64,000 nt of DNA from an uncultured Gammaproteobacteria bacterium (GTDB taxonomy: Bacteria; Pseudomonadota; Gammaproteobacteria; Xanthomonadales; Xanthomonadaceae), in assembly GCA_963710825.1 (NCBI GenBank), contig CAVQBQ010000005.1:769504-833503 (forward strand), in the 5' to 3' direction. The position numbers and the translations under genes are program-made. Of this stretch, positions 12,093-44,895 are shown one piece after another; the stretch's first letter is position 1; each line of letters starts with the position of its first letter. The notes beneath the pieces were generated by a model. The model did not search any database, was not told where the DNA came from, and saw only the letters and a list, made by a program, of their open reading frames with translations.

Positions 12093-12102
12093 GGCGGTGT
12101 CC

Positions 12103-12840: not shown

Positions 12841-13019
12841 GGGAGGATTCCTTCGTGACGGGTGTTCGTTTGGCGGGCTGCCTGGCTGGCCACTCCGGCG
12901 GCGCCGGAGTCCAGGGCGATGGTGGTCGATCAGTCGCTTGGATCGTGGGCTGGTGGCGAACGACGGGTCGGGCAAGTCAGGACCGACATGGTGTTCGCCG
13001 TTGTCGCATCGGGCGTGGC

Positions 13020-13250
13020 TCAGCGGATCCGGAACAACGGGAGCATCGGGTTTTGCAGGAAGCTCCGCGCCGCGGGTGCGTGCCGCGGCATCGTGGCGTT
13101 GGCGCTGCCCCGGGCCGGGCCGATCTGGCTGGCGGCATCGAAGTCCAGCAGTTCCGACAACCGCAACGGCACCGCGGCGGCCAGGTCGTGCGAGGTCCAG
13201 TGCGTGTGCAGTGGCATGTCTGGTGCATGCAAGGCATTCGGGATGTTCAT
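13020..13250 (-). CDS. Possible small ORF (76 aa, no recognisable domain) in the 410-bp gap between the HlyD and ATPase genes
   Basis: Its ATG (13248-13250) lies 1 nt after the HlyD stop codon, which suggests coupling. There is no homology I can recognise, and it could be a high-GC artefact. Confidence 0.2.
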   Translation of the reverse strand: MNIPNALHAPDMPLHTHWTSHDLAAAVPLRLSELLDFDAASQIGPARGSANATMPRHAPAARSFLQNPMLPLFRIR

Positions 13251-13251
13251 G

Positions 13252-28535: not shown

Positions 28536-28909
28536 GACGGTTTCCGGGCCATGCCGGCCATGGGTGGCAAGACAATCACGGCCGGTGAAGGGGTGGGCAC
28601 GGTGGTGTGCAGATCGTTTTCGGAGGGCATGTCCGCACCCGCCAGAGCAAATGCGAGCAATTGCCAGATGCCAGTGCCCGGAAATCATCTCTTAAGTCAT
28701 TGAATATTTTACTGAAATAAAGGGGCCGAAGGAAGGCTGCCCAGCTATCACTCGATCTGGCCACACCTTTGCTGTCATCCAGCTCCTGCGGACCATTTCC
28801 ACAAGGTGTTTGAGTGGTGTCGATTTTGCCGGCCCCAGGCCGGCTGGCATGCGTTCCAACGCCGGAGCAAACAGCGTTGCCATGGCTTGGTATCGTGGTG
28901 ATCTACCTG

Positions 28910-29617
28910 ATGAGCAGAGAGTTCCAGAAGCCATTGACGGCATTACAGGTAAGTGTGATCATTGATTACATGAAAGGCAAGCAAGCCAAGCCCAGACCGT
29001 CCACCCTGCACGTACGCAATTATCGCGAGCGCATGCGGCAGCAGGGCCTTGTGAAAAAGGACGTGTGGATCCGGCCTGAATATGCCGAAGAACTGGCCGC
29101 CATCGAGCGCGGCATGCGAGAGGTTGACCGCGATCCCGCACTGCCTTGCCTGCCCTCCGAGCCGAGCCAGGCCGGCTGGTCGATCTCGACGATCCACCAT
29201 GCGATCGCCCAGACCTCGGCTGTGCAACAAGGGCTGGTGACGCTCGATCTCATCGAGGGCGCCGAGCCCAGCCTGCATCTGCAGATGCATGCGTTTGGGG
29301 ATCTCTCGGTCTTCGTGGCGGTTGGCGGGGACCAGATCATCGTGGAGTCCTACCTGTGGCCGGTGGCCCAGGTCATGGAGCCCGCTGACTTCAACGCGCA
29401 TGTCCTGCGCACCCACAAACTCATTCCGCTGTCCACGATTGCGCTGCAGGAGGTGGGCGGGATCGAGAGCTACACGATGTTCGGTGCCTTGGACACGCGA
29501 TCCAGCCTACCCAGCCTGATGCTCGAAATCGAATCACTTGCCGACAACGTCATCAGTTTCACCGAGACGTACGCTTCCTACCTGCGTCCCTTGGAAGCAA
29601 CAGGGCCGTCCTGCTGA
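28910..29617 (+). CDS. YjfI-like DUF2170 protein with ~90-aa N-terminal extension (gene 1 of the stress cluster)
   Basis: The C-terminal half (…SVFVAVGGDQIIVESYLWPVAQVMEPADFNAHVLRTHKLIPLSTIALQEVGGIESYTMFGALDTRSSLPSLMLEIESLADNV…) resembles E. coli YjfI. The basic N-terminal part (KGKQAKPRPSTLHVRNYRERMRQQGLVKK...) has no clear assignment. An alternative start at 28814 is possible. Confidence 0.55.
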   Translation: MSREFQKPLTALQVSVIIDYMKGKQAKPRPSTLHVRNYRERMRQQGLVKKDVWIRPEYAEELAAIERGMREVDRDPALPCLPSEPSQAGWSISTIHHAIAQTSAVQQGLVTLDLIEGAEPSLHLQMHAFGDLSVFVAVGGDQIIVESYLWPVAQVMEPADFNAHVLRTHKLIPLSTIALQEVGGIESYTMFGALDTRSSLPSLMLEIESLADNVISFTETYASYLRPLEATGPSC

Positions 29618-30351
29618 TGGTGGACGCGCTGCCAATGCTTTTCAAAAGAATCCAGGACGGCGTTGGCGAGCTGGGTGAGTCGGTGCTGGGCAACCGCAGC
29701 GAACGCGCGCTGGACCAGGGTATCCGCGGTATCGACCTGGTCCTGCACCAAGCCCGATCGGATCTTGCGTCGGCCAAAGCCCGCCGGATTGCCAAGGAGG
29801 ATGCGATCAACGCAGGCAAGACGCGCATCCATGCCGCAGAACTGCAGATTCGCTCGCTTCTTGCAAAGCGCCGGGTCAAGCAGGCGCGCACACTCGCCGC
29901 CGAGGTCGTGGCGCTGGAAGCCGAGCAGCTCGCGCTCGGCCACGAAGCTCGGGCACTTGTCGACCAGGAAGGTGAGTTCGTGCATGCCATCGCCCAGCTT
30001 GAACACCAGCTACGTCGCATGAAGCACCAGCTGGGCACGTTGCGCGCCACCACCGGCATCCAGCGGGCGCAGGCCGCAGTGGCACATCTGCAGCCGGGCC
30101 CGGAGACCCACCCCGAGAGCGCGCAAGCTTCCGCGCAACGCCTGCGCGAACGCGCCGCAACAACCAAGCCTGCTGCCAGCAAGCCAGCTACCAGCAAGCC
30201 GTCTGTAAGGCAACCAAGGGGCAAGCGCAGACCAGCCGAGGTGCCGCAGACGGACCAGGCCATTGAAAACGTCCTGGAGCGCCTGTCCATGCATGCGAAG
30301 TCCACAAGCAAGACGGCCGTCAACAAGACAACCGCAAGGAAGACCAAATGA
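29617..30351 (+). CDS. PspA/IM30-family protein (YjfJ-like)
   Basis: 244 aa, all-helical coiled coil. MLFKRIQDGVGELGESVLGNRSERALDQGIRGIDLVLHQARSDLASAKARRIAKEDAINAGKTR... resembles PspA/Vipp1 helix alpha1-alpha4, with a Lys/Thr-rich C-terminus. Its start overlaps the previous stop; its stop overlaps the next start (ATGA). Confidence 0.7.
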   Translation: MVDALPMLFKRIQDGVGELGESVLGNRSERALDQGIRGIDLVLHQARSDLASAKARRIAKEDAINAGKTRIHAAELQIRSLLAKRRVKQARTLAAEVVALEAEQLALGHEARALVDQEGEFVHAIAQLEHQLRRMKHQLGTLRATTGIQRAQAAVAHLQPGPETHPESAQASAQRLRERAATTKPAASKPATSKPSVRQPRGKRRPAEVPQTDQAIENVLERLSMHAKSTSKTAVNKTTARKTK

Positions 30352-30983
30352 ACGATTTCCTGCAAACCGTGCTCACCTTTCCGACATTGCCTTACAGCAT
30401 CCTGCTGGCGTTCTGCGTGGTTTACTGGATGCTCGCAGCGACCGGACTGCTGGATGGCGACGCCATCGACGGCCTGCTGGGATCGGACGGCGATCCCGGT
30501 GATTCCACCGCGACGGCCGGCATCGTGGCCAGGATGGGGCTGGGTGGGGTACCACTCATGGTTGTGATCGCGGTCCTGTCTTTTTGCGCGTGGCTGGCCA
30601 CCTATTTCGTTCAGCTGCTGGTCCTGTCGCACCTGCCAGGCCCACTGCGCATGCTGGCGGGCGTGGTGACACTGGTCGCGGCCTTGATCCCCGGCGTGCT
30701 GGTGACATCTGCACTGCTGCGGCCCCTGAGCAAGCTCATCAACCGCCTGAGTCCCCCCATCGCACGGTCGATCCTGGGGCGCGCTGGCACCGTGATTTCG
30801 CCTTGCGTCGATGCCGATTCCGGCCGCGCTGAATTCGATGACGGCGGCGCCGGGCTGATCCTGCAGGTGCGTACCTTGCCCGGCAGCATCTTCCAACGTG
30901 GCGAGCGTGTCGTCCTGCTTTCGTACGACGAGCAGGCCAATACCCACGCCGTGATCTCCGAAACCGATTTCAACAACCGCTAG
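30348..30983 (+). CDS. YqiJ-like inner-membrane protein with C-terminal NfeD-type OB-fold (flotillin partner)
   Basis: 211 aa. TM helix, acidic DGDAIDGLLGSDGDPGD stretch, two further TM helices, and a C-terminal OB-fold segment LILQVRTLPGSIFQRGERVVLLSYDEQ. This matches the architecture of E. coli YqiJ (DUF1449/NfeD). Confidence 0.7.
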   Translation: MNDFLQTVLTFPTLPYSILLAFCVVYWMLAATGLLDGDAIDGLLGSDGDPGDSTATAGIVARMGLGGVPLMVVIAVLSFCAWLATYFVQLLVLSHLPGPLRMLAGVVTLVAALIPGVLVTSALLRPLSKLINRLSPPIARSILGRAGTVISPCVDADSGRAEFDDGGAGLILQVRTLPGSIFQRGERVVLLSYDEQANTHAVISETDFNNR

Positions 30984-31013
30984 CCATACCGAGACCCAAA
31001 AAAGGAGCTTTAC

Positions 31014-32987
31014 ATGTCACTTCCCCTCATTCTTCCGTTCTTGATCGGGCTCGGTGTGCTGCTGGTACTGGCGCTGGGCGTGTTTGGACTGTTCAAGGCG
31101 TTCTACCGCAAGGTCGACCAGGGCACTGCCCTTATCGTCAACGACATGAGCACGCAGCCCAAGGTGCACTTCACCGGCGGGTTGATCATCCCGGTGCTGT
31201 ACAAGGCCGAAGAGATGCAGATCAGCCTGATCACGCTGCAGGTCGATCGCCGCGGCAAGGAAGGCCTGATCTGCCGCGACAATATGCGCGCTGATATCTC
31301 GGTCGCCTTCTACCTCCGCGTCAACGAGACGCCGGCCGACGTGTTGCGGGTGGCCAAAGCCGTAGGCGCTGCACGTGCTTCGAACAAGAACGCGGTCGAT
31401 GAGTTGTTCAACGCCAAGTTCTCCGAGGCACTGAAGACCGTGGGCAAGCGCTTTGAATTCATCGACCTGTTCGAGAAGCGCCAGGAGTTCCGCGACGCGA
31501 TCGTCGATGTGATCGGCAGGGACCTCAATGGCTACGTGCTGGAAGACGTGGCCATCGACTACCTGGAGCAGACCCGCAAGACCGAACTGGACCCCAGCAA
31601 CATCATGGATGCCGAGGGTATCCGCAAGATCACCGAGCTCACTGCTGCGCAAAACGTGCGTACCAACGAGCTGGAGCAGGACGAGCGGCTTTCGATCACC
31701 AAGAAAAACACCGAGACCCGTGAGCACATGCTGCAGATGGAGCGCCAGCAGGCCGAGGCCGAAGCCAAGCAGAAGCGCGAAGTCGCCACTGTCCAGGCGC
31801 GCGAGGAAGCCGAAACCGCCAAGGTGCAGGAAGAGCAGCGCCAGGTCTCCGAGCGCGCGCGCATCGAGACGCTGGAGCAGGTCCAGATCCGTGAGCAGGA
31901 GCAGCTGCGCCAGGTAGAAGTCGCCGAGCAGAACCGCCGCCGCGCCGTGGCCATAGAGTCCGAGCGCGTGACCCGAGCCGAGCAGCTCGAGCAGGTGACC
32001 ACCGACAAGGAAGTCCAGCTGCAGGGCGTCGAGCGCGACAAGGTCGTCGAGCAGGGCCGCATGGACGTCGCCAACGTCGTGCGCGAGCGCACCCAGATCG
32101 AACAGACGGTGGCCGTGGCCGAAGAGAAGATCAAGGAAACCCGCCAGGTGTCGGAAGCCGATCGTGCCAAGCAGGTGTCGATCCTCGCCGCCGAGGCGTC
32201 GGCGCAGGAAACCCTGGTCATGCAGGTCAAGGCAGCCGAAGCGGGCGAGCAGTCGGCCAAGCATCGCGCCATGGAGATGACCCTGATCGCCGAAGCCGAG
32301 TTGGTCGCCGCTGCAAAGCAGTCCGATGCCAAGAAGGCACTCGCTGTCGGCATCCGTGCCGAGCAGGCGGCACCTGGCCTGGCGCTGGCCGAGGTTCAGG
32401 AAGCCACTGCCATTGCGTCCGAAAAGACCGGCGTGGCCGAGGCGCGCGTGATCGAAGCCAAGGCGGGCGCGAACTACAAGCAGGGCAACAGCGAAGCGCG
32501 CGTGCTCGCCGAACGCTTGGAAGCCGAGGCTGGCGGCCAGGCCAAGATGGGCCAGGCCAAGGCCGATGCGACCCAGGCGATGGGCGAGGCAGAAGCCGAC
32601 GCCGTAGGTCGGCGCATGGGCGCCGAGGCCGAGGGCCTGACCGCCAAGTTCGCAGCCATGGGCAAGATGAGCCCGGAAGCGCGCCAGCACGAGGAGTTCC
32701 GCATGCAGCTGGAAACCACGTTGCGGCAACTGTTGGCATCGCTGGAAGCGGGCAAGGACATCTCGCGCGAGAATGCCTCGGTACTGGCCAATGCCCTCAA
32801 CGGCGCCAACATCGAGCTGATCGGCGGCGACGGTGGTGTGTTTGATGCGCTCACCAAGGGTGTCTCGATCGGCAAGGCGCTGGAGGGCATCACCGGCGAG
32901 AGCCCGGTCCTCAAGCAGATGCTGGGCCGACTGGCTGGCCTGCCGGCGCCGCAGGCCGACTCGAAGGCTTCGGCACCCGAAGCCTGA
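31014..32987 (+). CDS. Flotillin-family SPFH/band-7 protein (YqiK-like)
   Basis: 657 aa. N-terminal TM, SPFH domain (…ISLITLQVDRRGKEGLICRDNMRADISVAFYLRVNET…), then a very long Glu/Ala/Gln/Arg-rich flotillin coiled-coil. Confidence 0.85.
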   Translation: MSLPLILPFLIGLGVLLVLALGVFGLFKAFYRKVDQGTALIVNDMSTQPKVHFTGGLIIPVLYKAEEMQISLITLQVDRRGKEGLICRDNMRADISVAFYLRVNETPADVLRVAKAVGAARASNKNAVDELFNAKFSEALKTVGKRFEFIDLFEKRQEFRDAIVDVIGRDLNGYVLEDVAIDYLEQTRKTELDPSNIMDAEGIRKITELTAAQNVRTNELEQDERLSITKKNTETREHMLQMERQQAEAEAKQKREVATVQAREEAETAKVQEEQRQVSERARIETLEQVQIREQEQLRQVEVAEQNRRRAVAIESERVTRAEQLEQVTTDKEVQLQGVERDKVVEQGRMDVANVVRERTQIEQTVAVAEEKIKETRQVSEADRAKQVSILAAEASAQETLVMQVKAAEAGEQSAKHRAMEMTLIAEAELVAAAKQSDAKKALAVGIRAEQAAPGLALAEVQEATAIASEKTGVAEARVIEAKAGANYKQGNSEARVLAERLEAEAGGQAKMGQAKADATQAMGEAEADAVGRRMGAEAEGLTAKFAAMGKMSPEARQHEEFRMQLETTLRQLLASLEAGKDISRENASVLANALNGANIELIGGDGGVFDALTKGVSIGKALEGITGESPVLKQMLGRLAGLPAPQADSKASAPEA

Positions 32988-33062
32988 TCCCGCCGGCGCC
33001 CGGCATGCCGGGCCCCGGTGTTGCCTGCGCCTCTTGCCTGCGCCATCAAGGACTGAAGCTTC

Positions 33063-36000
33063 ATGACGGATTCCAACACCACGGACGCCAACGCATCACT
33101 CGACCAGGCCGTCGCCCAGGGCGGTGCCTACGAGGTACTGCGCCAGCGACTCTCCGAGCAGGGCCGGCGACTGCGCGAGGTCGCCGACACGCTCAACGCC
33201 AAGCGACTGCAGGAGTTCGGCGATTCCCGTATGGAAATCGTGGGCCGCCTGCGGGTGCGCAGCGAGCAGAATGCGCTGGGCCGCGACGTAGTGCAGGTCG
33301 GGAATCAATTGCTCTTCGGTTACAACGTGTTCCTTGGGCTCAAGACCAGCACCGTCGTGGCCGACGTCTTCAGCCTGTATCGCCTGGTGGAGACTACAGG
33401 CGGCTACGACGTCACTCCGGTCGACCTGGGTACGAGCTTCCTTGCTGATCCCGCGTTCCAGAGGGATTTCGAAGAGCTCTACGCGTATTCCAAAAACGCG
33501 CGTCTGCTCCAGCTGTTGGTCAAGGACGGCAAGCTGCTGGCGTCGTTCCAGGTGGGACTCAAGACCACCGATATCCGCGTGTTCCGCTGGCAGCTGGCCA
33601 GCAGCGGCGAGATCTCCTACATCGACACCCGAGGCGAGCGCGACGTGGTGCTGCCGGCGCCGTTCGACTTCCAGTGGACGCGCGCCGACAAGGACATGGA
33701 AGTCAGCGGGCGCTTCCCGCACCTGAATATCCTCGACACCCTGTTCGTCGAAACCACCGGCGGTGACTTGACGATCAAGGTCGAGAACAACACCGAGACC
33801 GGCGAAGGCGTCTACAGCGAGCCGGTCGAGGATCGGACCCAGTCACTCGACGACGCGCAGGTCGAATTCGCCAAGGTCGGCACGCTGGTCCTGCTCAAGG
33901 TCTTGCCCTACCGGGAAACCCGGTGGCGCGGCCTGATATTCAACACGTTGACCGGCAAGGTATCGCGGGTGGATGCCATCGTCCAGGCATGTGTCCAGCT
34001 GCCCGAAGACCACGGCATCATCTTTCCCGGTGGCTATTACCTGCAGAGCGGCGAGCACAAGGCTTTCGACGCCGCGGTCGCCGGGATGCATTACAGGCGC
34101 ACGATCCGCTCGCCCAATGGCGAAGACGTGCTGTATGTGTTCTACGAACCCGAGAGCGGGCTGATCGCCCTGTTGGTTTACAACATGGTGCAGCGCCGCT
34201 TGCAGCCGCCGGTGCTTGCGCATGGTTACGCGCGCCTGCCCGATGGCCGCATGGTCCTGTTCCTGGCCGAAAACGACGATCCGACCCGCGTGCACCAGAT
34301 GCAGGTCTGGCAGACACCATTCGCGAGCGACGAGTTTGCCGCGGGGCGCCCTCCCAGCAGCACGTTCATGGGCCGGGTTGGCAATGCCGAGCTGGTGCGC
34401 GCCATCTCCAACGTCTACGACCTGACCCGCGACATCGAGCGCGAGGAGGTCACCGCCCAGCGCTATGAGCTGCTCGCCCACGCTACCCGCAAGCTGTTCG
34501 ACGCGCACCACTGGATCGACGATGCACATACCGGGGGCCTGTCCACGCTGCTGCACGAGATCGCGGCCACCGGCGAGTCGGTGCTGGACGAATTCGAGAA
34601 GGTCGTCGCCATCCGCCAGCAGTCGCAGGTCGCCATGGACAAGGCCAAGGTCGCGCAGCGCGCCTTGCTGGGACGGCTGCAGCCCGAGGGCTGGAACCAG
34701 GCGCAGGAGTTCGTGGACGCGCTCAACGCGATCAGTGCCCAGCGCGGCCACCTGCTGACCATCCGCGAGTTGCGCTACATCGACACCCGCGCCATCGATG
34801 CGATGGTGGAGGCCTTGGGTCAAGCCCACGAGGATGTGGGTGCGGCCACCGGCCGTTTCCTGGCGACCGACCAGGCGCTGGCGCCCTTCGAGCAGCGCTT
34901 ATCGACGCTCGACGACGCGGCGCAAAAGGCCACCACAGCCGTGCAATTGGCCGAGCGATTGGCCGGCATGCAGGGCATGTCGGCGGACCTGGACATGCTC
35001 TCCGAGTTGATGGCCTCGCTGAAGGTCGATGACCCCACGCAACGCACGCAGGTCGTGGACACGCTGTCCAACCTTTACTCGCGCCTCAACCAGGCCAAGG
35101 CACGGGCCGATCTGCGCCGCAAATCCTTGGGATCGGCCGAAGCGGTCGCCCAGTTCGGGGCCCAGTTCACCTTGTTCGGACAGTCGCTGGCCAGCGCCCT
35201 GGGGATGGCGACCACGCCGGAAAAAGCGGACGAACACCTTTCGCGCCTGATGGTCCAGCTTGAGGAGATCGAGAGCCAGTTCGGAGAGCATGAAGAATTC
35301 CTCGGTGACATCCTGGGCAAGCGCGAGGAGTTGCTCGAAGCGTTCGAAAGCCACAAACAGGCCTTGCTCGACCAACGCCAACGCAAGGCGCAATCCGTCA
35401 TGGACGCGGCCAGCCGTATCCTGGATGGCCTGCCCCGGCGCACCGAACGATTCGCAAGCGCCGACGAGCTCAACGCCTTCTTTGCCGGCGACACGCTGAT
35501 CCAGAAGCTGCGCGAGCTGGCCGGGCGTTTGCGCGAGCTCAAGGACACCGTCAAGGCCGACGACGTCGAATCGCGGATCAAATCGGCCCGCGACCAGGCC
35601 GTCCGCGCCCTGCGTGATCGCAGCGACCTGTTCGAAGACGGCGGCAACGTCATCAAGCTGGGGCCGCGTCATCGGTTCAGCGTCAATACCCAACCGCTGG
35701 ACCTGACCCTGCTCCCGCGCGGCGACCACTTGGCCGTGCACTTGACCGGCACCGACTTCATGGAGGCCATCGACGATATCGAGCTCGCGGCGCTCAAGCC
35801 GTTCTGGTCGGTCACGCTGGAATCGGAGTCGCCGGACATCTCCCGTGCCGAATACCTGGCAGGTCAGATACTGGAAGCAGCCATGGCCGATCGTGACGGC
35901 CTGGACTTGCCTGGCTTGCACGGCCTGGCTGCGGACACGCAAGCGCTTGGCAAGGCCGTGCGCGACTTCGCGGCACCGCGCTACCGCGACGGATACGAGA

Positions 36001-38426
36001 AAGGGATCCATGACCACGATGCCACCCTGATCCTGCAGGCGCTACTTGCCGTGCAACGCGATGCCGGCACCCTGGTCCATCCACCCGCGGCGCGCGCGCT
36101 GGCCTTCGACTTCTGGGCCAACCTGGGCGACGACGCCGTCGAGTGGATTGTGCGGGTCCGGGCCGCGCGCGCCGTGGATGCTCTTAGCATGGGTGGCAAC
36201 GGCATTGCACAGTTGCAAGCGGGTCTGGCGACGGCAATCGACCAGTACGCTTTTACGGGCGATCGAATCTTTCCGGTCACCGACGCGCAACCGGCGGAAG
36301 CTGCCGCCTATCTCATAGAAAGCATCACCGGCACCGCCCCCGCATTCCAGGCCAGTGCCGGCGCGGACATCTTGGAGCGCGCCCTACGCGAGGCCCTGCG
36401 GTCCGGCGACGTCGGTAGCGTCTTCGAAGCTGCCTTGGGACATCTGCAAGCGCGCCCGGGTGCCCGCTGGTCATTGGTCCAGCAGGCATTGGAGTCGATC
36501 GCAGTCCGCCCGGATCTGGGCGAGTACGCACGCTATGTACCCGAAGCCACGGCGCTGTACCTGCATGGCAAGGAACTCGCACCCACGATCGGCCAGGCCC
36601 CCCTGTCGGCGACGGTCAGCGGCTTGCTGGGGCAGCATCCTCGTATCCAGGACGGCACCCTGACCGTGGCGATCGATGAGGCCATCGCGCGATACAAGCA
36701 TCACGCCACGCAGTTCGTCCCCGCCTACCAGCGCTACCTGGCCCTGCGATCCCAGGTGATCCAGCGCGAGCGCGAAGCAATGCGGCTGGAAGAATTCAAG
36801 GCGCGTCCGCTGACCTCGTTCGTGCGCAACAAGCTCATCAACGACGTCTACCTGCCGGTCATCGGCGACAACCTCGCCAAGCAGATGGGCACGGCGGGCG
36901 AGGGCAAGCGTAGCGACCTGATGGGGCTGCTGATGATGATTTCGCCGCCTGGTTACGGCAAGACCACGTTGATGGAATACGTCGCCCACCAGCTTGGCCT
37001 GGTCTTCATGAAGATCAACGGGCCGGCCCTCGGCCACGAGGTGCGTTCGCTGGATCCCGCTCAGGCACCCGATGCGACGTCGCGGCAGGAGCTGGAGAAG
37101 CTCAACCTGGCGCTGGAGATGGGCAGCAACGTGATGCTTTACATCGATGACATCCAGCACACACACCCGGAATTCCTGCAGAAGTTCATTTCCTTGTGCG
37201 ACGGCACCCGCCGCATCGAAGGTGTCTGGCATGGCAAGACGCGCACCTACGACATGCGCGGCAAGAAGTTCGCGGTGGTGATGGCCGGCAACCCGTACAC
37301 CGAATCGGGCGAGGTCTTCAAGATCCCGGACATGCTGGCCAACCGGGCCGACATCTACAACCTGGGCGACGTGCTCGGGGGCATGGAGGACTCCTTTGTC
37401 CTGAGTTACCTGGAGAACAGCCTGACGTCCAACCCGGTGTTGGCCCCGTTGGCGACGCGTGACATGTCCGACCTGTACCTGCTGGTTGACAAGGCGCGCG
37501 GCAAGGAGGTCTCCACCAATGCGCTCAAGCACGCCTACAGCGGCGCGGAGATCAACGAGATCGTAGGTGTGCTGCAACGCCTGATGGCGGTGCGCGACGT
37601 GGTGTACCGCGTCAACCAGCAATACATCGAGAGCGCGTCGCAGGCCGACAAATATCGCGTCGAGCCGCCGTTCAAGCTGCAGGGCAGCTACCGCAACATG
37701 AACAAGCTGGCGGAGAAGGTCTCGCCGGTGATGAATGACGCCGAATTGCAGCAACTCGTGTCCGATCACTACCTGGGCGAGTCGCAACTGTTGACCACCG
37801 GCGCCGAGGAAAACCTCCTGAAGCTCGCCGAGTTGCGAGGCAACATGACGGCGGAACAGCAGGCACGCTGGGACCGGATCCGCGCCGATTTCCTGCGCAA
37901 CAAGGCAATGGGCGCCGATGATGCAGATGTCGGGGGTCGAATGGTCGCGCAACTGGCCGACATCGCCGGCAACCTGGAGTCGTTGCGTCAGGAACCCATG
38001 GAGAAGACCGGCCCGGCGCCGTGGGACGAGGTGATCGGGCTGCTTGAGCGGCTCGGGCAGAGGGAAGTCCACGCAACGGCACGGCCATCCCCGGCAGCCC
38101 CACACACTTCAATCAAGCCGGAACTCGATGCCATGTTCGACGGGCTGCAGGCCCATCAAGCCCCGTTGCTTGAGATCCTGAGGGCCACGCTGACCCGGCA
38201 GGACATCCTCAACGACACCATGGTCGACGTGTTTGATCGATTGGCCCAGACCGCATCGTCCCCAGCTACCGAGGCTGACGATCAAGACGGCCACCGCCCT
38301 GTCGAGCACACCCTGCGCGTGCGAAGCGCCCGTGAAATCGCCTTCGAGCGCGAACTGGCCAACCTGCGATTCCGCCACGAAGGGCCTGCCCGCACGAGCA
38401 AGCCTGCAACGGATCCAGACGCTTGA
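33063..38426 (+). CDS. Giant (1787 aa) uncharacterised protein with an internal AAA+ ATPase core
   Basis: Uninterrupted ORF with normal codon bias. Walker A LMMISPPGYGKTTLMEYVAH (~aa 1290-1310), Walker B NVMLYIDDIQH (~aa 1355), sensor-1-like FAVVMAGNPYTESG and an Arg-finger region FKIPDMLANRADIYNLGD (MoxR/dynein-like AAA+). ~1270 aa of unassigned sequence lie N-terminal and ~330 aa C-terminal. Confidence 0.8.
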   Translation: MTDSNTTDANASLDQAVAQGGAYEVLRQRLSEQGRRLREVADTLNAKRLQEFGDSRMEIVGRLRVRSEQNALGRDVVQVGNQLLFGYNVFLGLKTSTVVADVFSLYRLVETTGGYDVTPVDLGTSFLADPAFQRDFEELYAYSKNARLLQLLVKDGKLLASFQVGLKTTDIRVFRWQLASSGEISYIDTRGERDVVLPAPFDFQWTRADKDMEVSGRFPHLNILDTLFVETTGGDLTIKVENNTETGEGVYSEPVEDRTQSLDDAQVEFAKVGTLVLLKVLPYRETRWRGLIFNTLTGKVSRVDAIVQACVQLPEDHGIIFPGGYYLQSGEHKAFDAAVAGMHYRRTIRSPNGEDVLYVFYEPESGLIALLVYNMVQRRLQPPVLAHGYARLPDGRMVLFLAENDDPTRVHQMQVWQTPFASDEFAAGRPPSSTFMGRVGNAELVRAISNVYDLTRDIEREEVTAQRYELLAHATRKLFDAHHWIDDAHTGGLSTLLHEIAATGESVLDEFEKVVAIRQQSQVAMDKAKVAQRALLGRLQPEGWNQAQEFVDALNAISAQRGHLLTIRELRYIDTRAIDAMVEALGQAHEDVGAATGRFLATDQALAPFEQRLSTLDDAAQKATTAVQLAERLAGMQGMSADLDMLSELMASLKVDDPTQRTQVVDTLSNLYSRLNQAKARADLRRKSLGSAEAVAQFGAQFTLFGQSLASALGMATTPEKADEHLSRLMVQLEEIESQFGEHEEFLGDILGKREELLEAFESHKQALLDQRQRKAQSVMDAASRILDGLPRRTERFASADELNAFFAGDTLIQKLRELAGRLRELKDTVKADDVESRIKSARDQAVRALRDRSDLFEDGGNVIKLGPRHRFSVNTQPLDLTLLPRGDHLAVHLTGTDFMEAIDDIELAALKPFWSVTLESESPDISRAEYLAGQILEAAMADRDGLDLPGLHGLAADTQALGKAVRDFAAPRYRDGYEKGIHDHDATLILQALLAVQRDAGTLVHPPAARALAFDFWANLGDDAVEWIVRVRAARAVDALSMGGNGIAQLQAGLATAIDQYAFTGDRIFPVTDAQPAEAAAYLIESITGTAPAFQASAGADILERALREALRSGDVGSVFEAALGHLQARPGARWSLVQQALESIAVRPDLGEYARYVPEATALYLHGKELAPTIGQAPLSATVSGLLGQHPRIQDGTLTVAIDEAIARYKHHATQFVPAYQRYLALRSQVIQREREAMRLEEFKARPLTSFVRNKLINDVYLPVIGDNLAKQMGTAGEGKRSDLMGLLMMISPPGYGKTTLMEYVAHQLGLVFMKINGPALGHEVRSLDPAQAPDATSRQELEKLNLALEMGSNVMLYIDDIQHTHPEFLQKFISLCDGTRRIEGVWHGKTRTYDMRGKKFAVVMAGNPYTESGEVFKIPDMLANRADIYNLGDVLGGMEDSFVLSYLENSLTSNPVLAPLATRDMSDLYLLVDKARGKEVSTNALKHAYSGAEINEIVGVLQRLMAVRDVVYRVNQQYIESASQADKYRVEPPFKLQGSYRNMNKLAEKVSPVMNDAELQQLVSDHYLGESQLLTTGAEENLLKLAELRGNMTAEQQARWDRIRADFLRNKAMGADDADVGGRMVAQLADIAGNLESLRQEPMEKTGPAPWDEVIGLLERLGQREVHATARPSPAAPHTSIKPELDAMFDGLQAHQAPLLEILRATLTRQDILNDTMVDVFDRLAQTASSPATEADDQDGHRPVEHTLRVRSAREIAFERELANLRFRHEGPARTSKPATDPDA

Positions 38427-39124
38427 CCGGGACGTTCGACATTGCCGAAGCAAGTCGATTCGGGGAAGCATCCGTCCGCCACGATTTGATGCGCGACGCG
38501 GCCAACATGGCCGATGCCTCCCCTGCAGCGCTCCTTCTGAAGAGCGTCCAGACGATCCACAAGGTGCTTCTCTCTGCGGATCCACGATCCCTCAAGCGCA
38601 GCATCGGCTGGTTCGGACGGCTGTTGGGTCGCGACATTGCCTTGCAGGCCGAGTCGGAGGCGCTGCGTAGCCATCTGCGTGTAGACATCCTTGAAGCGCA
38701 TCGTCTGCTTCATGACCTGCAACTCCATGACAAACGGCTGCAGCAGCTTCGCGACGATTTTGGCCAGGCCATCAAGCAACTGGACGCGGATGTTGCCGCG
38801 CTCAACAGCCAGGTCATGGACAGCACCGATGTGGGTCTGTCGACCGTCATTGCCCAACGAACGCAATTTCTTGCTTCGCTGGCCTACAGCTACCGGATGA
38901 CCGGTGCCCACCTGGATCTGACCGTCACCAACCACCGGGAGCTTGCCCGGCGCGTCGCCCTCATGCTGCCTCGGGTGGAGCTGTTGCTGGACCAGGACAG
39001 GTTGTTGCGTGCAGGCCATACCGAAAACACCGCAATCCAGTCAGCCGCGCAGTCGATGGATGGGCTGGTCGACCTCATTGACCCCCCGGGGGAGTTACCC
39101 TCGATCCAGACCACAAGGACCTAG
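38423..39124 (+). CDS. TelA-like coiled-coil protein, shorter paralogue (possible TTG start overlapping the giant gene's stop; alternative ATG at 38483)
   Basis: 233 aa helical protein whose pattern (...LRSHLRVDILEAHRLLHDLQLHDKRLQQLRDDFGQAIKQLDADVAALNSQ...) parallels the middle region of the next gene. Tightly coupled on both sides. Confidence 0.45.
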   Translation: MTGTFDIAEASRFGEASVRHDLMRDAANMADASPAALLLKSVQTIHKVLLSADPRSLKRSIGWFGRLLGRDIALQAESEALRSHLRVDILEAHRLLHDLQLHDKRLQQLRDDFGQAIKQLDADVAALNSQVMDSTDVGLSTVIAQRTQFLASLAYSYRMTGAHLDLTVTNHRELARRVALMLPRVELLLDQDRLLRAGHTENTAIQSAAQSMDGLVDLIDPPGELPSIQTTRT

Positions 39125-39126
39125 TC

Positions 39127-40224
39127 ATGAACCAGCCCCCTTCCGAGCCTTCACAAGCCCTGCTCCCGCCCTCGCTCAACGCGCAGTCCCTCAAGGACCT
39201 GGGCCTGTCGTCGGAGGATGTCGAACCCATCCTTGAAACGGCCAAGGCACTGCAGGATCTAAGCCCGGGCAACCTGCACGGTTATGGGCGCCAGGCCGCT
39301 GGCCGGACCACCAGTTTCAGCACGCAATTGCTGGACAAGGTGCGCAACACCGACCTGGACGAGAGCGGCAACAAGCTCGGCGAGGTGGTCCGGATCGCAC
39401 GCAGCCTCAACCTGTCGGCGCTCAACGAGCGATCCAGGGTCCCGGTCATCGGTGCTCTGATCGACAAGCTCAAGACGACCAAAGGCGAGTTGGTACAGCG
39501 TTACAGCTCCACCAACAAACAGGTCGACGAGTTGATGCATGACGTTGGCCGCACCCAGGCCTTGCAACAGCAACGCGTGCGTGAGTACGACCAGATGCAC
39601 GCCATCGTGCTGGAGGAGCGCCACGACCTCGGCATCCATGTCGCCGCCGGCCGCATCCGCATCGCCGAGTTGCAGCAGGACATCGCCGGGTTGGAAGGCC
39701 GGGACGATCCGGAATCGCGTACGCAGCGTGCCGAGCTCGACACCGCTTTGCGGCTGATCGACAAGCGGGTGTCGGACCTGCAGGTCCTGCAACATGCCGC
39801 CACCCAGACGCTGCCGATGATCCGGCTGATCCAGGCCAATGCGATCCAGTTGATCGAGAAGTTCAGCGCCGTGCGCGACATCACCCTTCCGATGTGGCGC
39901 AATCAATTTGCGATCCAGCTGTCACTGGCCGACCAGCGCAACGCGGTGGACCTGGCCAACGCCATCGACGACGCCAGCAACGAGCTGATGCGCAAGAACG
40001 CCGAGTTGATCCACTCGACTGCCGTGGGCAGCGCCAAGGCCAACCAGCGATCGATCATCGACCTGGAAACCCTGCAAACGGTCAACGACACACTCATCAG
40101 CACGGTCGAGGAGGTGCGCCAGATCCATCGCGACGGCATGGCAGCACGTCAGCAGTTGAGTGTCGAGATCGCGACGATGCGCGACGATCTCGAAAAACGC
40201 CTGTCGTTGACCACGACCCCTTGA
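39127..40224 (+). CDS. TelA-like (toxic-anion-resistance family) protein
   Basis: 365 aa, all-helical. Size and coiled-coil layout fit the TelA/KlaB family. Adjacent to a TerB-like gene. Family assignment is by resemblance only. Confidence 0.45.
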   Translation: MNQPPSEPSQALLPPSLNAQSLKDLGLSSEDVEPILETAKALQDLSPGNLHGYGRQAAGRTTSFSTQLLDKVRNTDLDESGNKLGEVVRIARSLNLSALNERSRVPVIGALIDKLKTTKGELVQRYSSTNKQVDELMHDVGRTQALQQQRVREYDQMHAIVLEERHDLGIHVAAGRIRIAELQQDIAGLEGRDDPESRTQRAELDTALRLIDKRVSDLQVLQHAATQTLPMIRLIQANAIQLIEKFSAVRDITLPMWRNQFAIQLSLADQRNAVDLANAIDDASNELMRKNAELIHSTAVGSAKANQRSIIDLETLQTVNDTLISTVEEVRQIHRDGMAARQQLSVEIATMRDDLEKRLSLTTTP

Positions 40225-40254
40225 GATTGACCACGCCAACGAAGGAAAGAACCA

Positions 40255-40500
40255 GTGAACATCAAGCACAGCCATCTCGAAATCGCGCTCAAGTCCATCT
40301 CCTGCTTCCAGAGTAATGGCCGGCTTGACGTCCAGGAGCTCGACGCACTGGTCGCCATCGCCGAGCGCGACGGTTCGATCAATCCGCAAGAGGCGCAGGT
40401 GCTTGATGACATCATCCAGAAGATCAGCCCGGGTGAGATCGATGCGGCCATGAAGGAACGCATCGAAGCGTTGAAAAAAAAGCTGGCGGCTGTGGGCTGA
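40255..40500 (+). CDS. Small TerB-like (tellurite-resistance TerB / DjlA N-domain fold) protein; GTG start with a good RBS (AAGGAAAG)
   Basis: 81 aa. ...SNGRLDVQELDALVAIAERDGSINPQEAQVLDDIIQ... matches the TerB-like D-G-x-I-x-x-x-E repeat pattern. Confidence 0.45.
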   Translation: MNIKHSHLEIALKSISCFQSNGRLDVQELDALVAIAERDGSINPQEAQVLDDIIQKISPGEIDAAMKERIEALKKKLAAVG

Positions 40501-40835
40501 CTCCTGCTTCCATGTCCCGCTTCCATGTCCGAAGCGTCAGCTTGCGGAGTATTCGCTTTGATCGGCGTTAGCGCTTGCTCAATATCTTCCAAGCGCATGG
40601 CTTGGTGAGTGATGCGGATTGAGGGGGCTTCAGGGACGCACTCGCGTGCCTGGGCATCATGGGTTGCTGCGCCGCACAGCAAGCTTATGTGAAAAGCCAG
40701 CCCAGACCCGCAGCGGCCCCTGCTGATCACGAACGGACCAGGTGCACATCAGACATAAGGCATTGGCGTGCATGGCGGGTGCCGGCGGCCAGTCATGGTC
40801 CCCACTCAAACTGGCACAACCCCTCCAGGCACCAA

Positions 40836-42123: not shown

Positions 42124-42711
42124 TTATCTTTGGGCTTGCCTGCGCTCGACCAGTTGGTATTGGCGACGATCCCCTTGGCGTTTGCCCTGTGCATCCACGT
42201 TGACGCATAGCCGTCCGTCCTCGCACAGCACGATGTCCGAGGCGTTGATGGCCGAGAGCAGGCGTGCCTCGACGTGGTGGCGGGCGACTTCATCGCGGCT
42301 ACTGTCCACCCATCGCCAGGTGCCACCTACAGCAAGCACAGAACCGACCAGTAGCGCCGTCACGGCTGCGGCGACAAGGGTCCTCTGCGACCTGGCCAGT
42401 AGCGCGCGCTGGTCCGTCATGGCATCGGCGGCACGATTGGCATTGTCTGCAGCGTGCTGCAAGCGTCCCTCGAACGTTGCGATGGCACTCCCCGCCCCGT
42501 GCGTGATGGCGTGTTGCGACTGCTCGCCGATGGCCTGCAGGACCTGTCGTGCAAAATCCCCAGCACCGGATTCCAGCCGATGGGCGCTTTGCGACAGCGT
42601 CTTGGTGCCGGCCTCCACCTCCTGCACGGCCTGCTCGCTCCGGGCATCGAGCCGGTCGGCGATCACAGCCAGCTTCAGCAGCAGTTGCTTGACTGCCTCG
42701 ATATCGTCCAT
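42124..42711 (-). CDS. Hypothetical membrane-anchored coiled-coil protein (195 aa)
   Basis: Single TM (LVAAAVTALLVGSVLAVGG) and no recognisable domain. Lies downstream of the DUF2235 gene. Confidence 0.4.
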   Translation of the reverse strand: MDDIEAVKQLLLKLAVIADRLDARSEQAVQEVEAGTKTLSQSAHRLESGAGDFARQVLQAIGEQSQHAITHGAGSAIATFEGRLQHAADNANRAADAMTDQRALLARSQRTLVAAAVTALLVGSVLAVGGTWRWVDSSRDEVARHHVEARLLSAINASDIVLCEDGRLCVNVDAQGKRQGDRRQYQLVERRQAQR

Positions 42712-42740
42712 GCCTGTCTCCGACGTCCAGTGTCGTGTGG

Positions 42741-44205
42741 TTACATCCGCATCGCGTGCGGCGTGGGTGCCTGCAATACCTGCGCCTGTTGCGCGGGGAG
42801 GGGTTGCTCTGCGGCCTGCTGGTCACGAAGTTGCAGCGCGCGCCCAAGCGACTGGCTTTCGGATTGCCATGCCTGCCCAGCTTGTGAGCCGAGGAAGCCT
42901 TGCGAGACGGCGTGCGACTCACGTTTCCAGTTGGCGTCGCTACCGTCCTGCGAAGCTTTGAAAAGCCGGTCGATCATGCCGTCCGTGTCACTACCGGGTT
43001 TTGGTTGGAATGGCGTGTTCATCGACTGGGTGACATCAAGTCCAGGCCGTCTCTCCTGAACGGGTAGCGGCCCAATCGGGACGCCGCGGCGCTCCAGCGT
43101 CGCCTCCAAAGCGGGATCGATGGGGTCTTTGTGCCAGCAGTCCTGACTGGGATCACGACGGCACAATGCGCGTGTCACCAGGATCGTGTCGTGGTTGCGC
43201 ACGCCGTCGCGGAAGCCGAACGTGGTGAAGAGGCCATGCATGTGCTGATCCGAGCGGTGCACCACGCTCAGTTCCGGATCCGCTGGGATCGCGCGTTTGA
43301 CGAGGAAGGGCTGGTCGCTCAGGGCATTGAGGTAATCGATGCCCAGGTTATGGCTGCGGATGCCCAGTCCGTTGAGCAGATAGGAATCCCCGATGTCGCT
43401 GTGGGAGCCGCCCACCATGATGTTGAGGAATCTGCCCTGTTCGCTGAAGCCGAATACGAGGACATCACTGGCGGGAAACAGGTCGCGACGTTCGTCTTCG
43501 GCGGTGATCTGCAATGCCGATACAACCGACGATGGCAACCGGCGATCTTCCTCGGCGACGCCAGTATCGACAGGATCGAACAGCACCACCGCTTGCACCG
43601 TTTTTCCTGGTGGGACCAGGGCCGGTTTGGCGTACTCGATATGCGTAATCAGATTGTCTTTGTCGCGAGTGAACCTGGCGTCATGTCGGATCCTGGATGC
43701 CACGCTCGTCGATCATGCGAAGCAAGGAAGCGACTTCTTCGGAACCACGACTGAAGCCTACGCCAGCAATCCGGATCTGGGCCTGCGGGTCCTCTTTCAA
43801 CCATTCGTACGATTGCTTGCAGAACCCGTAGTACGCCGTTTCAACGCGTGCTTCAAACGTATAGCCGGTAAGCCCATCCAGAGTGCGTTTGATCGGGTTG
43901 GCCTGGGTGAAGGTGCCCTCGACGTAGCCGCCGCGGATGCGTTTGTTGCCTTGGTCTTCCAAAGCGCGGACTTGTGAGTAAATCTTTGCGACGACACTCC
44001 AGTTTTCTGGCGCGTCCTTGAACATGCTGTTACCCGTTCCGTCCAGTCCTGAAATATACAAGCGCTGGTGAGGGTCGTCGGCATGTATGAGGACCGGTGT
44101 TTGCAGCTTTTCTAGCGCGCTTTCAGCTTGTTGATAACTTTCCAAGTCATGCGGATCGGCACGATCAACATCGACGCCGTCCACGCCTGTCTTTTTCTTC
44201 CCCAT
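42741..44205 (-). pseudogene. DUF2235 alpha/beta-hydrolase (Tle1-like T6SS lipase effector family) split by a frameshift near 43681-43703
   Basis: ORF 43681-44205 carries the N-terminal motifs ISGLDGTGN and GVGFSRGS (GxSxG-like nucleophile elbow). ORF 42741-43703 in another frame continues the same domain with GGSHSDIGD (catalytic His/Asp motif). Together ~490 aa. Confidence 0.6.
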
Positions 44206-44220
44206 CTTTAGCTTCCCTGC

Positions 44221-44895
44221 TTAGTAGGTGCGACTGAAAATTTTGATCAGGTCATTTCGTGAGTAGCTATATTTATTACCCGGAATTTGAGCGGTTTTCA
44301 TGGGGATCCACGCCCGCATATAGACATTGATTGTCGAGTCATTGACTTCAAGAATGATGCCGGGTGGAGGGATGCTCGCGGTCTCGGATATCTGTGCTCG
44401 CAAAGCGTGGTGACGAATCAACTTGTCCTTGAATATCTCCGCGATATCGATTTCGGCATGGTGTGGGGTGCCATCTTTCGAGCGCCAGTCGACTTGGGCT
44501 GGTGCCGGGAAATTCGGTATCGGTCCCCACCCCGCTGTCATGTTGTCGGGGTAGTCAGAGCCAAGCGACTCGGAAGAGCTTTGGAGTTCGTCGTCCGGTT
44601 CATCGATTCGGTAATTTCCATACCGCACCTTGCAGCCATAGGTGCTGTAAGTGGAAACATCGAAATCATGTGCCGTAAACCACAACGGCCAATCCGCCAC
44701 CGTGCCGGTGTAGGGCCCATGCCCAGGAGGCGGCGTCATGTTCGACGACGGGTGCGCTGGCTGGATGTCGGGGTCGGGAGCTGTAGTGGTCATGGCCGGG
44801 TAGCATCCTGTCATGGCGAGTGAGAGCAACAAGGCGGGCGCCAGGCGGGTGCGGGGCCCCAGGCTGGTGGGTAGCCTGCTTGGTCGTGTTGTCAT
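44221..44895 (-). CDS. Lipoprotein of unknown function, candidate partner (immunity?) of the DUF2235 protein
   Basis: Start at the ATG at 44895. Signal peptide plus lipobox LSLAMTGC. Sits 16 nt upstream of the DUF2235 gene. Confidence 0.5.
   Translation of the reverse strand: MTTRPSRLPTSLGPRTRLAPALLLSLAMTGCYPAMTTTAPDPDIQPAHPSSNMTPPPGHGPYTGTVADWPLWFTAHDFDVSTYSTYGCKVRYGNYRIDEPDDELQSSSESLGSDYPDNMTAGWGPIPNFPAPAQVDWRSKDGTPHHAEIDIAEIFKDKLIRHHALRAQISETASIPPPGIILEVNDSTINVYMRAWIPMKTAQIPGNKYSYSRNDLIKIFSRTY

Follow-up and report, generated by a model that had tools for sequence, protein, structure and literature searches.

A frameshift-split DUF2235 hydrolase gene of a Xanthomonadaceae bacterium in a probable type IV secretion effector-immunity cassette with a non-canonical C-terminal module

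The locus analysed here is located on the minus strand of a 64,000-nucleotide stretch of DNA (hereafter, the window) from an uncultured gammaproteobacterium of the family Xanthomonadaceae (contig CAVQBQ010000005.1 of assembly GCA_963710825.1, positions 769,504 to 833,503) and consists of four successive open reading frames (ORFs) across positions 42124-44895. An initial annotation, made from the sequence alone, described it as a frameshifted gene for a Tle1-like hydrolase of the DUF2235 family with a lipoprotein gene upstream. The first ORF in the direction of transcription (44221..44895), with an AAGGA Shine-Dalgarno sequence 7 nt upstream, encodes a plausible lipoprotein of 224 aa in which a basic N-terminus is followed by a hydrophobic stretch and then by a lipobox, LAMTG-C; this protein is the candidate cognate immunity protein of the cassette. 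Its stop codon lies 15 nt before the ATG of the hydrolase (effector) gene, which is split in two. ORF1 (43681..44205; 174 aa) represents the 5' half, and ORF2 (42741..43703; 320 aa when read from an incidental GTG) the 3' part; the database gene call for the ORF2 fragment is P0004 (285 aa, 100% identical). The C-terminal module of the effector, denoted ctd2, occupies residues ~402-487 of the repaired protein (42744..43001), as delineated from the sequence and from the AlphaFold2 (AF2) model of the orthologue P0001. The last ORF (42124..42711; 195 aa, hence ORF195) starts 29 nt past the effector stop codon, behind a GGAGA Shine-Dalgarno sequence, and homologs recur in this position downstream of ctd2-type effectors. 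This third gene (42711..42124) and the separate, modular character of the last ~85 residues of the hydrolase were both overlooked in the initial annotation. A scan of the locus for promoters and terminators yielded nothing informative.

ORF1 and ORF2 are two parts of a single split hydrolase of the DUF2235/Tle1 fold, far beyond chance. The repaired product of 487 aa aligns across the junction without a gap with the full-length relatives P0001-P0003 (483-491 aa; 88%, 74% and 68% identity, respectively), as expected from the initial proposal that the two overlapping ORFs make one protein. ORF1 matches the profile PF09994 (T6SS_Tle1-like_cat, formerly DUF2235) with an E-value of 1.5e-9 and 38 bits against a cut-off of 27, and the score rises to 43.4 bits for the repaired protein, so that the family assignment survives the profile search that the initial annotation had recommended; ORF2 alone has no Pfam match, and 12 of 14 relatives match the same profile, with a best E-value of 2.3e-18. 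The motifs are where they had been reported, all on the minus strand: DGTGN (44043..44029) and the nucleophile elbow GFSRG with Ser152 (43758..43744) are encoded in ORF1, and GGSHSD, the beginning of the longer GGSHSDIGD, with His268 (43412..43395) in ORF2, which also contains FDPV with Asp210 (within 42741..43703). Among 98 relatives, D55, G56, T57, N59, G150-F-S152-R-G154 and H268 are invariant, and D210 is nearly so. The AF2 model of P0001, the 88%-identical orthologue, was computed with 98 homologs and has a mean predicted local distance difference test score (pLDDT) of 89.3, with values above 90 for most of residues 10-385. A Foldseek search of the PDB with this model retrieves 4o5p at the top, followed by TleB (9j3f) and the Legionella protein lpg2422 (4m0m), with E-values from 7e-10 to 1e-7 and probability 1.00, and generic esterases rank far behind. 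The entry 4o5p is labeled in Foldseek as an 'uncharacterized protein' from Pseudomonas aeruginosa; we take it to be the Tle1 of that species (PA3290). Membership of the DUF2235/Tle1 fold thus follows from the profile, the motifs and the fold alike. The catalytic domain comprises residues 1-385, with Ser152 as the nucleophile and Asp210 and His268 as the probable acid and base. By family membership, the enzyme is presumably a phospholipase. The hydrolase has no signal peptide.

The break in the gene, which the initial annotation had placed at ~43681-43703, comes down to a single extra base at 43683..43684. Across 43560-43823, frame A ends with ERGIQDPT followed by a stop codon and frame B runs on as ...DARFTRDKDNLITHIEY. 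A DNA alignment was made with three intact orthologues, those at loci L081 and L082 (encoding P0001; 86% nucleotide identity) and L083 (encoding P0002; 76%). In this alignment, the window reads CCGAC[A]TGACGCC against CCGAC-TGAAGCC or CCGAC-AGAAGCC, and exactly one non-triplet difference is present in the window row. The extra base, which lies outside any homopolymer, at once creates the TGA at which ORF1 closes (...CCG AC[A] TGA CGC...), and the homologous frame picks up again at 43682. Because the insertion parts Ser152 in ORF1 from Asp210 and His268 in ORF2, no active enzyme can be expected from the locus as written.

Apart from this lesion, the gene shows no sign of relaxed selection. For the repaired window gene compared with L081, the ratio of nonsynonymous to synonymous rates (dN/dS, Nei-Gojobori) is 0.11, with 0.08 in the N-terminal half, 0.12 in the C-terminal half of the catalytic domain and 0.11 in the C-terminal module; for comparison, the values are 0.19 for ORF195 and 0.04 for the neighbouring rppH. 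By three-taxon arithmetic, omega is ~0.14 on the window branch compared with ~0.07 for L081. The alignment with the three orthologues reveals no second indel or stop codon in the repaired effector gene. With neither relaxed constraint nor any further lesion, the extra base either arose by mutation very recently or reflects an error of the consensus. Programmed +1 frameshifting, for which prfB is the comparison case, was considered and rejected: the sequence ACA UGA C is superficially prfB-like, but the orthologues are unshifted, re-pairing from ACA to CAU would be poor, and no Shine-Dalgarno-like stimulator is present.

We lean slightly towards a real mutation. The extra base is outside any homopolymer, the ~30 other window genes examined are intact, the orthologous effector gene is clearly decayed in the relatives L003 and L094, and frameshifted effectors of the X-Tfe class (see below) are reported to be common (PMC6536674). 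The most extensive decay is found in L003 (9916-11404; metagenome-assembled genome MFD01721.bin.1.229), where the first ~570 nt of the effector gene have accumulated 14 indels and the nucleotide identity drops to 64-66% in this decayed front, compared with 76-78%, with the 3' 294 codons remaining open. The lipoprotein and ORF195 genes of L003 are whole, and the surviving effector ORF is, as in the window, the C-terminal part that carries ctd2. Nevertheless, it is quite possible that the frameshift is not biological at all, that is, that the gene is intact in the organism and the extra base was introduced in assembly or polishing. The insertion falls on the third position of a Thr codon that is T in L081 and L082 and A in L083; in the window, A is followed by T, as would result, for example, if an A/T wobble polymorphism of a mixed population had been written as 'AT'. 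The low dN/dS of ~0.11 in both halves together with the lack of a second lesion would suit an intact gene as well, and the source entries, from a 1.31-Mb NCBI/ENA contig, are compatible with a long-read metagenome-assembled genome. Neither the frameshifted nor the intact allele with these flanks turned up when JGI metagenomes were scanned for exact patterns.

The lipoprotein gene is the most constant neighbor of the hydrolase gene. In a set of 80 related loci taken from one-genome-per-species contigs, a lipoprotein homolog is detected by tblastn directly upstream of the hydrolase gene in 77, the other three loci being L066 or fragments at contig ends. Two or three lipoprotein copies are present in L015, L026, L038, L004, L067 and L068, and a lipobox-like motif, defined by a loose pattern, is found in 77 of the 87 lipoprotein homologs, none of the Pfam or NCBIfam families being matched by the lipoprotein. 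This strict adjacency and the duplications make the lipoprotein a candidate immunity gene, consistent with the immunity-type pairing proposed initially from the upstream lipobox, although here the function is deduced from gene order. A precedent exists in Stenotrophomonas maltophilia TfcA, a class-3 lipase effector of a type IV secretion system (T4SS), for which a lipoprotein immunity protein in the periplasm has been demonstrated experimentally (PMC8262851). As an observation in its own right, tandem arrays in which two or three lipoprotein paralogues precede a single effector gene occur in L026 (7193-9953), L038 (8810-9951), L004, L067 and L068.

The cassette is compositionally foreign. The GC content dips to 0.50 at 44.0-44.4 kb compared with a window mean of 0.645, and the GC content at third codon positions is 0.63-0.65 in the lipoprotein gene and the 5' half of the effector gene compared with 0.82-0.87 in the flanking rppH and bfr genes. 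In the closest relatives, the cassette is located between bfr and rppH, the same site as in the window, which implies vertical inheritance within the clade after an older acquisition. An alternative to a toxin-immunity pair, namely, an ordinary housekeeping or secreted esterase or lipase with an unrelated lipoprotein neighbor, could appeal to the generic character of the alpha/beta-hydrolase fold and to weaker matches with many esterases. This explanation is barely credible considering the retention of the gene pair in 77 of the 80 loci with duplications of the immunity type, the absence of a signal peptide on the hydrolase, the atypical composition and, as discussed below, the swapping of C-terminal modules as in other toxins and the linkage of the family to T4SS loci.

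The distribution and genomic context of the family link it to type IV rather than type VI secretion. The family is confined to Pseudoxanthomonas, Lysobacter, Luteimonas, Xanthomonas, Dyella, Rhodanobacter, Luteibacter, Arenimonas, Vulcaniibacterium and a few Burkholderiales, and this combination of Xanthomonadales and Burkholderiales is the range described for the bactericidal Xanthomonadales-like T4SS (X-T4SS; PMC8740702). In many family members, the same catalytic domain is followed by a canonical XVIPCD, the T4SS signal domain represented by the curated profile PF20410 (conserved HPD, DHV, F.VQG and P...R), with the motifs HPDHALF..., IDHVV and FAVQG. Searched with a local hidden Markov model (HMM), this domain is present in 22-23 of the 80 loci, about a quarter, and the PF20410 positives include L070 (E 1e-32), L037 (9e-32), L078 (1.5e-11) and L042 (1e-8). 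In the Luteibacter locus L078, virD4 (PF02534, PF10412) is located directly upstream of the lipoprotein-effector pair. Homologs of virB4, virB6 or virD4, identified by tblastn with queries from family loci, are encoded within 10 kb in 12 of the 80 loci (those named are L001, L002, L015, L020, L031, L037, L066, L073 and L078-80), compared with ~1% vir adjacency that we estimate for random placement. DUF2235 has already been listed among the toxin domains of X-Tfe, the effectors of this system (PMC6536674).

Cassettes of the ctd2 type close a vir operon in two genomes. In Pseudoxanthomonas sp. CF125 (L084, the same locus as L001), the gene order is virB4, a 259-aa gene, virB6, two DUF4189 genes, a 303-aa gene, an effector gene combining PG_binding_1 with PF20410, a 262-aa gene, the lipoprotein gene, the DUF2235-ctd2 gene and ORF192; L002 is organized in a similar manner. 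A third locus, L094 (8640-9971; JGI contig Ga0209257_1000078), carries a 73-codon 5' fragment of a VirB8-like gene that abuts a DUF2235-ctd2 gene from which the first ~116 codons are missing; against the N-termini of 24 plasmid VirB8/TrbF proteins, this fragment shows 40-43% identity over 97% of its length at a marginal E-value of 4e-3. L094 contains no lipoprotein gene and has an intact ORF195 homolog downstream, so that it looks as if a deletion took out the vir operon together with the front of the cassette. A distinct arrangement is present in the chromosome of Xanthomonas sp. LMG 31884 (L015, 1600-14300) and also in L020, with repeated modules made up of a virB6 paralogue, DUF4189, lipoprotein and DUF2235 genes; L015 comprises four VirB6-like segments, three lipoprotein copies, two full effector copies and one partial copy.

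By contrast, the type VI affiliation implied by the initial annotation is not supported. What holds of that annotation is the Tle1 fold, borne out by 4o5p, 9j3f and 4m0m; the secretion system does not fit, given the sister proteins with PF20410, the vir genes at 12 of the 80 loci and the X-T4SS range. The initial annotation noted that no VgrG, PAAR or Hcp gene is present in the window, and a Pfam scan of 20 large window ORFs agrees, having returned only housekeeping families and no gene of a type VI secretion system (T6SS) or of a T4SS. No T6SS gene was found in the Pfam-annotated neighborhoods of L081, L083, L084 and L085 either, and among the top 25 families listed for the 63 large ORFs closest to the related loci, no T6SS family recurs. 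The absence of T6SS genes from the window is explained by the family being of the T4SS type, and the description of the hydrolase as an 'orphan' effector that is missing its T6SS does not hold. That the gene is an orphan, decaying Tle1 lipase with a Tli-like lipoprotein immunity gene, situated away from a T6SS or outliving it, appears quite improbable, even though PF09994 takes its name from T6SS Tle1, 4o5p and TleB rank first among the structural matches, and a periplasmic or lipoprotein immunity gene is the pattern of Tle/Tli pairs. Some Xanthomonadales do have T6SSs. Besides the lack of T6SS genes in the window, in the annotated neighborhoods and among recurrent neighbor families, this alternative is at odds with the virB or virD4 genes adjoining 12 of the 80 loci and with PF20410 in a quarter of the family. 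Furthermore, the window protein possesses an additional modular C-terminal domain, which T6SS Tle1 proteins are not known to have, and 4o5p and 9j3f, at ~700-780 aa, are built differently.

This module, ctd2, is the commoner ending of the family, present in 42 of the 80 loci. The consensus is D..[IL]DR[LM]..A...D.......Y..S..GQ.W followed by a stretch rich in Gln and Ala, and the proteins end in motifs such as PHAMRM, as in the window, GPVMRM or PAALAR; the pattern of the window protein itself is D..IDRL..A...D....L.S..GQAW, with a Gln-rich stretch and the terminal PHAMRM. In the AF2 model of P0001, a disordered linker (residues 387-404) leads to three helices (406-419, 423-439 and 441-470) and a disordered tail. 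The tail of the window protein, ...QQAAEQPLPAQQAQVLQAPTPHAMRM, is Gln-rich and has a basic and hydrophobic end. Gln makes up a fraction of 0.24 in 46 ctd2 tails, the same as in the XVIPCD tails from the same loci (0.24), and the last six residues include R or K in 40 of the 46 tails and M, P or L in 45, with acidic residues in 8. This composition fits the description of the XVIPCD tail as Gln-rich with basic and hydrophobic, but no acidic, residues at its end; that tail is needed for translocation and not for VirD4 binding (PMC8740702). That ctd2 is a degenerate XVIPCD was nevertheless ruled out by Pfam searches, profile-profile alignment and predicted secondary structure, detailed below. Among database searches, those of PDB sequences with the family profile, the C-terminal domain (CTD) of the window protein and the CTD of P0094 returned nothing useful and did not reach 7MU9, the nuclear magnetic resonance entry of an XVIPCD; a word-indexed search with the ctd2 alignment brought up nothing beyond fragments from this one family.

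Searched exhaustively with HMMER, a set of 1.84 billion representative sequences contains ctd2 at the very C-terminus of proteins whose N-terminal regions are unrelated. The ctd2 profile used for this search also held ~88 positions from the end of the catalytic domain of P0122, and only matches to profile positions ~89-175 were considered. The bearers include P0138 (314 aa), the group of P0139, P0150, P0151 and P0155 (228-287 aa), P0167 (322 aa), P0169 (344 aa), P0172 (302 aa), P0149 and P0147, P0182, and the Gly-zipper proteins P0171, P0179 and P0181 (630-745 aa). A scan of ten non-lipase ctd2 proteins found no PF09994 and no other Pfam family. Judging by these matches, ctd2 is a modular domain that caps at least seven unrelated putative toxins. 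A variant with an apparent internal deletion is P0123 (121 aa, from ENA), in which the first ~45 residues of a DUF2235 member are joined straight to ctd2.

The protein encoded by ORF195 consists of a long N-terminal helix, one predicted transmembrane segment (~112-135) and a C-terminal part of ~55 residues, with two invariant cysteines. Using a domain-trimmed HMM, an ORF195 homolog was found directly downstream of the effector gene, on the same strand, in 26 of the 42 ctd2-type loci compared with none of the 22 XVIPCD-type loci. The coupling extends beyond the lipases. For four other ctd2 toxins whose loci were fetched, the downstream gene is an ORF195 homolog (P0169, E 1e-30; P0150, 4e-47; P0171, 5e-47; P0172, 2e-12, a 33-residue stub at the contig end), and where visible, a different small gene, presumably the specific immunity gene, is located upstream. 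In the Xanthomonas fragariae plasmid pYL19, a mobilizable IncP/MOBP plasmid of 20 kb (L091 2778-6174; NZ_CP071956.1), a 619-aa protein ending in ctd2 (E 4e-17) is followed by a 307-aa gene and then by a 161-aa ORF195 homolog (E 4e-14), all three annotated as 'hypothetical protein'. In the reverse test, all five metagenome loci found via ORF195 contain an ORF ending in ctd2 directly upstream. Thus, ctd2 and ORF195 appear to travel together irrespective of the toxin, and the XVIPCD-bearing lipase does without ORF195; on this sequence evidence, ctd2 is most simply read as a targeting module and ORF195 as the partner dedicated to it.

The local copies of Pfam and NCBIfam contain no family to which ORF195 belongs. 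A weak NCBIfam match to the IncP protein TraM (E 0.059) can be treated as a lead only, the ORF195 homolog of L087 has no plasmid match, and a literature search found no description of either ctd2 or the ORF195 family. In a separate group of ctd2-type loci without ORF195 (L018, L021, L024, L025, L032, L033, L038 and L071, from Pseudoxanthomonas; ~11350-13385), the effector gene is directly followed by a same-strand ORF of ~650 aa. Peptidase_S9 was matched by 7 of the 63 neighboring ORFs scanned, a set that included six of these ORFs, and this is probably the ~650-aa ORF.

Altogether, we consider it probable that the locus 44895..42124 is a lipase effector-immunity cassette of the X-T4SS type, in which the targeting module is non-canonical and has a partner gene dedicated to it. 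Under this model, the 487-aa serine hydrolase, presumably a phospholipase, would attack target-cell membranes from the periplasm, and the lipoprotein would face the periplasm and neutralize the toxin. The ctd2 module would take the slot that the VirD4-binding XVIPCD occupies in the sister proteins and, with its Gln-rich, basic and hydrophobic tail, could serve as the export and targeting signal. ORF195 might be a single-pass inner-membrane partner of ctd2, an adaptor or chaperone that passes ctd2 cargo to the coupling protein or to the T4SS. Delivery of ctd2 proteins by a T4SS and the adaptor role of ORF195 are what we infer from domain architecture and gene order.

Several results weigh against this interpretation. 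With regard to the module, PF20410 is not matched by the window protein, by its CTD alone or by 14 close relatives at E<=1-10, although the positive controls matched; hhalign comparison of the profiles of 46 ctd2 tails and 39 XVIPCDs gives a probability of 0.4%; and the predicted ctd2 fold is all-helical, unlike XVIPCD with its alpha-alpha-beta-beta-beta fold (PMC8740702). With regard to the secretion system, tblastn with VirB4, VirB6 and VirD4 finds no match in the 64-kb window, most of the T4SS adjacency is contributed by XVIPCD-type members, and only 2 of the 42 ctd2-type genome loci, plus L094, adjoin vir genes. As for the partner gene, 16 of the 42 ctd2 loci have no ORF195 nearby, the association between the two (Fisher p = 3.5e-7) is uncorrected for phylogeny, and the structure model of ORF195 is poor (pLDDT 61.5). 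Furthermore, the ORF195 relatives P0188, P0189, P0192, P0193 and P0195 have a precomputed match to the Pfam entry PF28006, so that this family is possibly annotated already.

Some of these points favor an alternative in which the ctd2 proteins are not T4SS substrates and ctd2 together with ORF195 represents a separate route or function, such as an ORF195-dependent release pathway, tethering of the toxin to the membrane or a second protective factor, with the XVIPCD sisters being the T4SS-adapted branch. In accord with this possibility, ctd2 shares neither sequence similarity nor a predicted fold with XVIPCD, ORF195 accompanies ctd2 only, most ctd2 loci are distant from vir genes, and L003 retains intact ORF195 and lipoprotein genes while the effector gene decays; moreover, T4SS effectors have known XVIPCD-less homologs whose action lies outside T4SS killing (Le1637, PMC10989847). 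We nevertheless regard this alternative as rather unlikely because ctd2 is found in the same C-terminal slot, behind the same linker, within one orthologous family and next to the same immunity gene; because its tails resemble those of XVIPCD in composition, including the basic C-terminus typical of T4SS substrates; because the vir operons of L084 and L002 have a ctd2 cassette at their end and the ctd2 gene of L094 lies against a virB8 remnant; and because the range of ctd2, Xanthomonadales and Burkholderiales, is that of X-T4SS.

Among the known systems, the proposed T4SS cassette most closely resembles the pairs of X-Tfe effectors and their X-Tfi immunity proteins, such as XAC2609/XAC2610 of Xanthomonas citri, the DUF2235-XVIPCD effectors (PMC6536674) and TfcA (PMC8262851). 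The likeness includes a toxin gene beside a lipoprotein or periplasmic immunity gene, a presumptive one in the window, a location scattered over the chromosome or closing a vir operon, the same taxonomic range, and a protein architecture in which an N-terminal toxin is followed by a C-terminal module of ~100 residues with a Gln-rich, basic and hydrophobic tail. Sister proteins join the DUF2235 catalytic domain to PF20410, and frameshifted copies are frequent. In contrast to these systems, the window protein contains no XVIPCD, no PF20410 match and neither the DHV nor the F.VQG motif, with three predicted helices in this place, and the window cassette includes the conserved third gene, ORF195, which is missing in XVIPCD cassettes. 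An analogous lesion affects XAC1164/XAC1165 of X. citri, an X-Tfe that is split by a frameshift and has an intact counterpart in Smlt0113 (PMC6536674). There, as in the window, the gene is broken into overlapping ORFs, the 3' ORF retains the targeting module and relatives carry intact orthologues, but the remaining ORF is a 127-aa XVIPCD-only one, whereas the window gene is split inside the catalytic domain, after residue ~172, and its module is ctd2.

The T6SS pair Tle1/Tli1 (PA3290; TleB, 9j3f) shares with the window cassette the PF09994 domain, the motifs DGT.N and G.S.G, the position of best structural match and an immunity partner facing the periplasm, a putative one in the window. However, the identity in the structural alignment is 13-17%, and the proteins are of ~700-900 aa, compared with ~487 aa in the window. 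The window family also has a modular C-terminal domain of the targeting type and virB/virD4 linkage, and no linkage with vgrG, hcp or PAAR genes was found. The 'atypical type IV effectors' Le1637 and XAC2247 (PMC10989847) are similar in being homologous to XVIPCD effectors, lacking XVIPCD and having a neutralizing protein, in the window a presumed one, encoded next to them. Nevertheless, Le1637 is a 321-aa phospholipase A1 of a different lipase family without a C-terminal module, whereas in the window protein XVIPCD is replaced by a distinct conserved module with its own partner gene.

Apart from the cassette, the window differs from the otherwise collinear L081 in a block of ~12.2 kb (28536-40780) that has no counterpart there, the PTPS/phasin side being joined directly to the rppH side. 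The block encodes a DUF2170 protein, a 657-aa ORF that is flotillin-like by eye and has no Pfam match, a 233-aa ORF, TelA, an 82-aa ORF and a 1787-aa DUF3686 'DNA-repair ATPase' with DUF7902 and AAA domains. The block resembles an inserted island of the stress or defence type.

In itself, a frameshifted Tle1-like gene is ordinary, given that split effector genes are common and that DUF2235 effectors of T4SS are already catalogued. The part worth following up is the pairing of ctd2 with ORF195: a single lipase family with a single immunity family carries either XVIPCD or an unrelated helical module, and a membrane-protein partner is encoded only with the latter. Tentatively, ctd2 and ORF195 might constitute a second effector-targeting system, hitherto undescribed, for use by Xanthomonadales and Burkholderiales in contact-dependent killing and serving at least seven unrelated toxin families, with ORF195 either linking them to the T4SS coupling protein as an adaptor or forming the core of an export route of its own. 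With the same reservation, the toxins so equipped could include the DUF2235 lipase, the 619-aa protein of the X. fragariae plasmid, the Gly-zipper proteins of 630-745 aa and several Pfam-less toxins of 230-390 aa, each encoded beside an immunity gene of its own, with an ORF195 homolog at the 3' end. Already at the level of annotation, the analysis corrects a probable systematic error, the label 'T6SS Tle1' on T4SS-linked proteins of Xanthomonadales. If ctd2 is indeed a targeting system, inventories of X-T4SS effectors based on PF20410 miss a whole class, the recruitment of effectors to a bactericidal T4SS would become testable through a two-component handle, and either ctd2 or ORF195 could be used as a bioinformatic hook for new antibacterial toxins and their immunity proteins.

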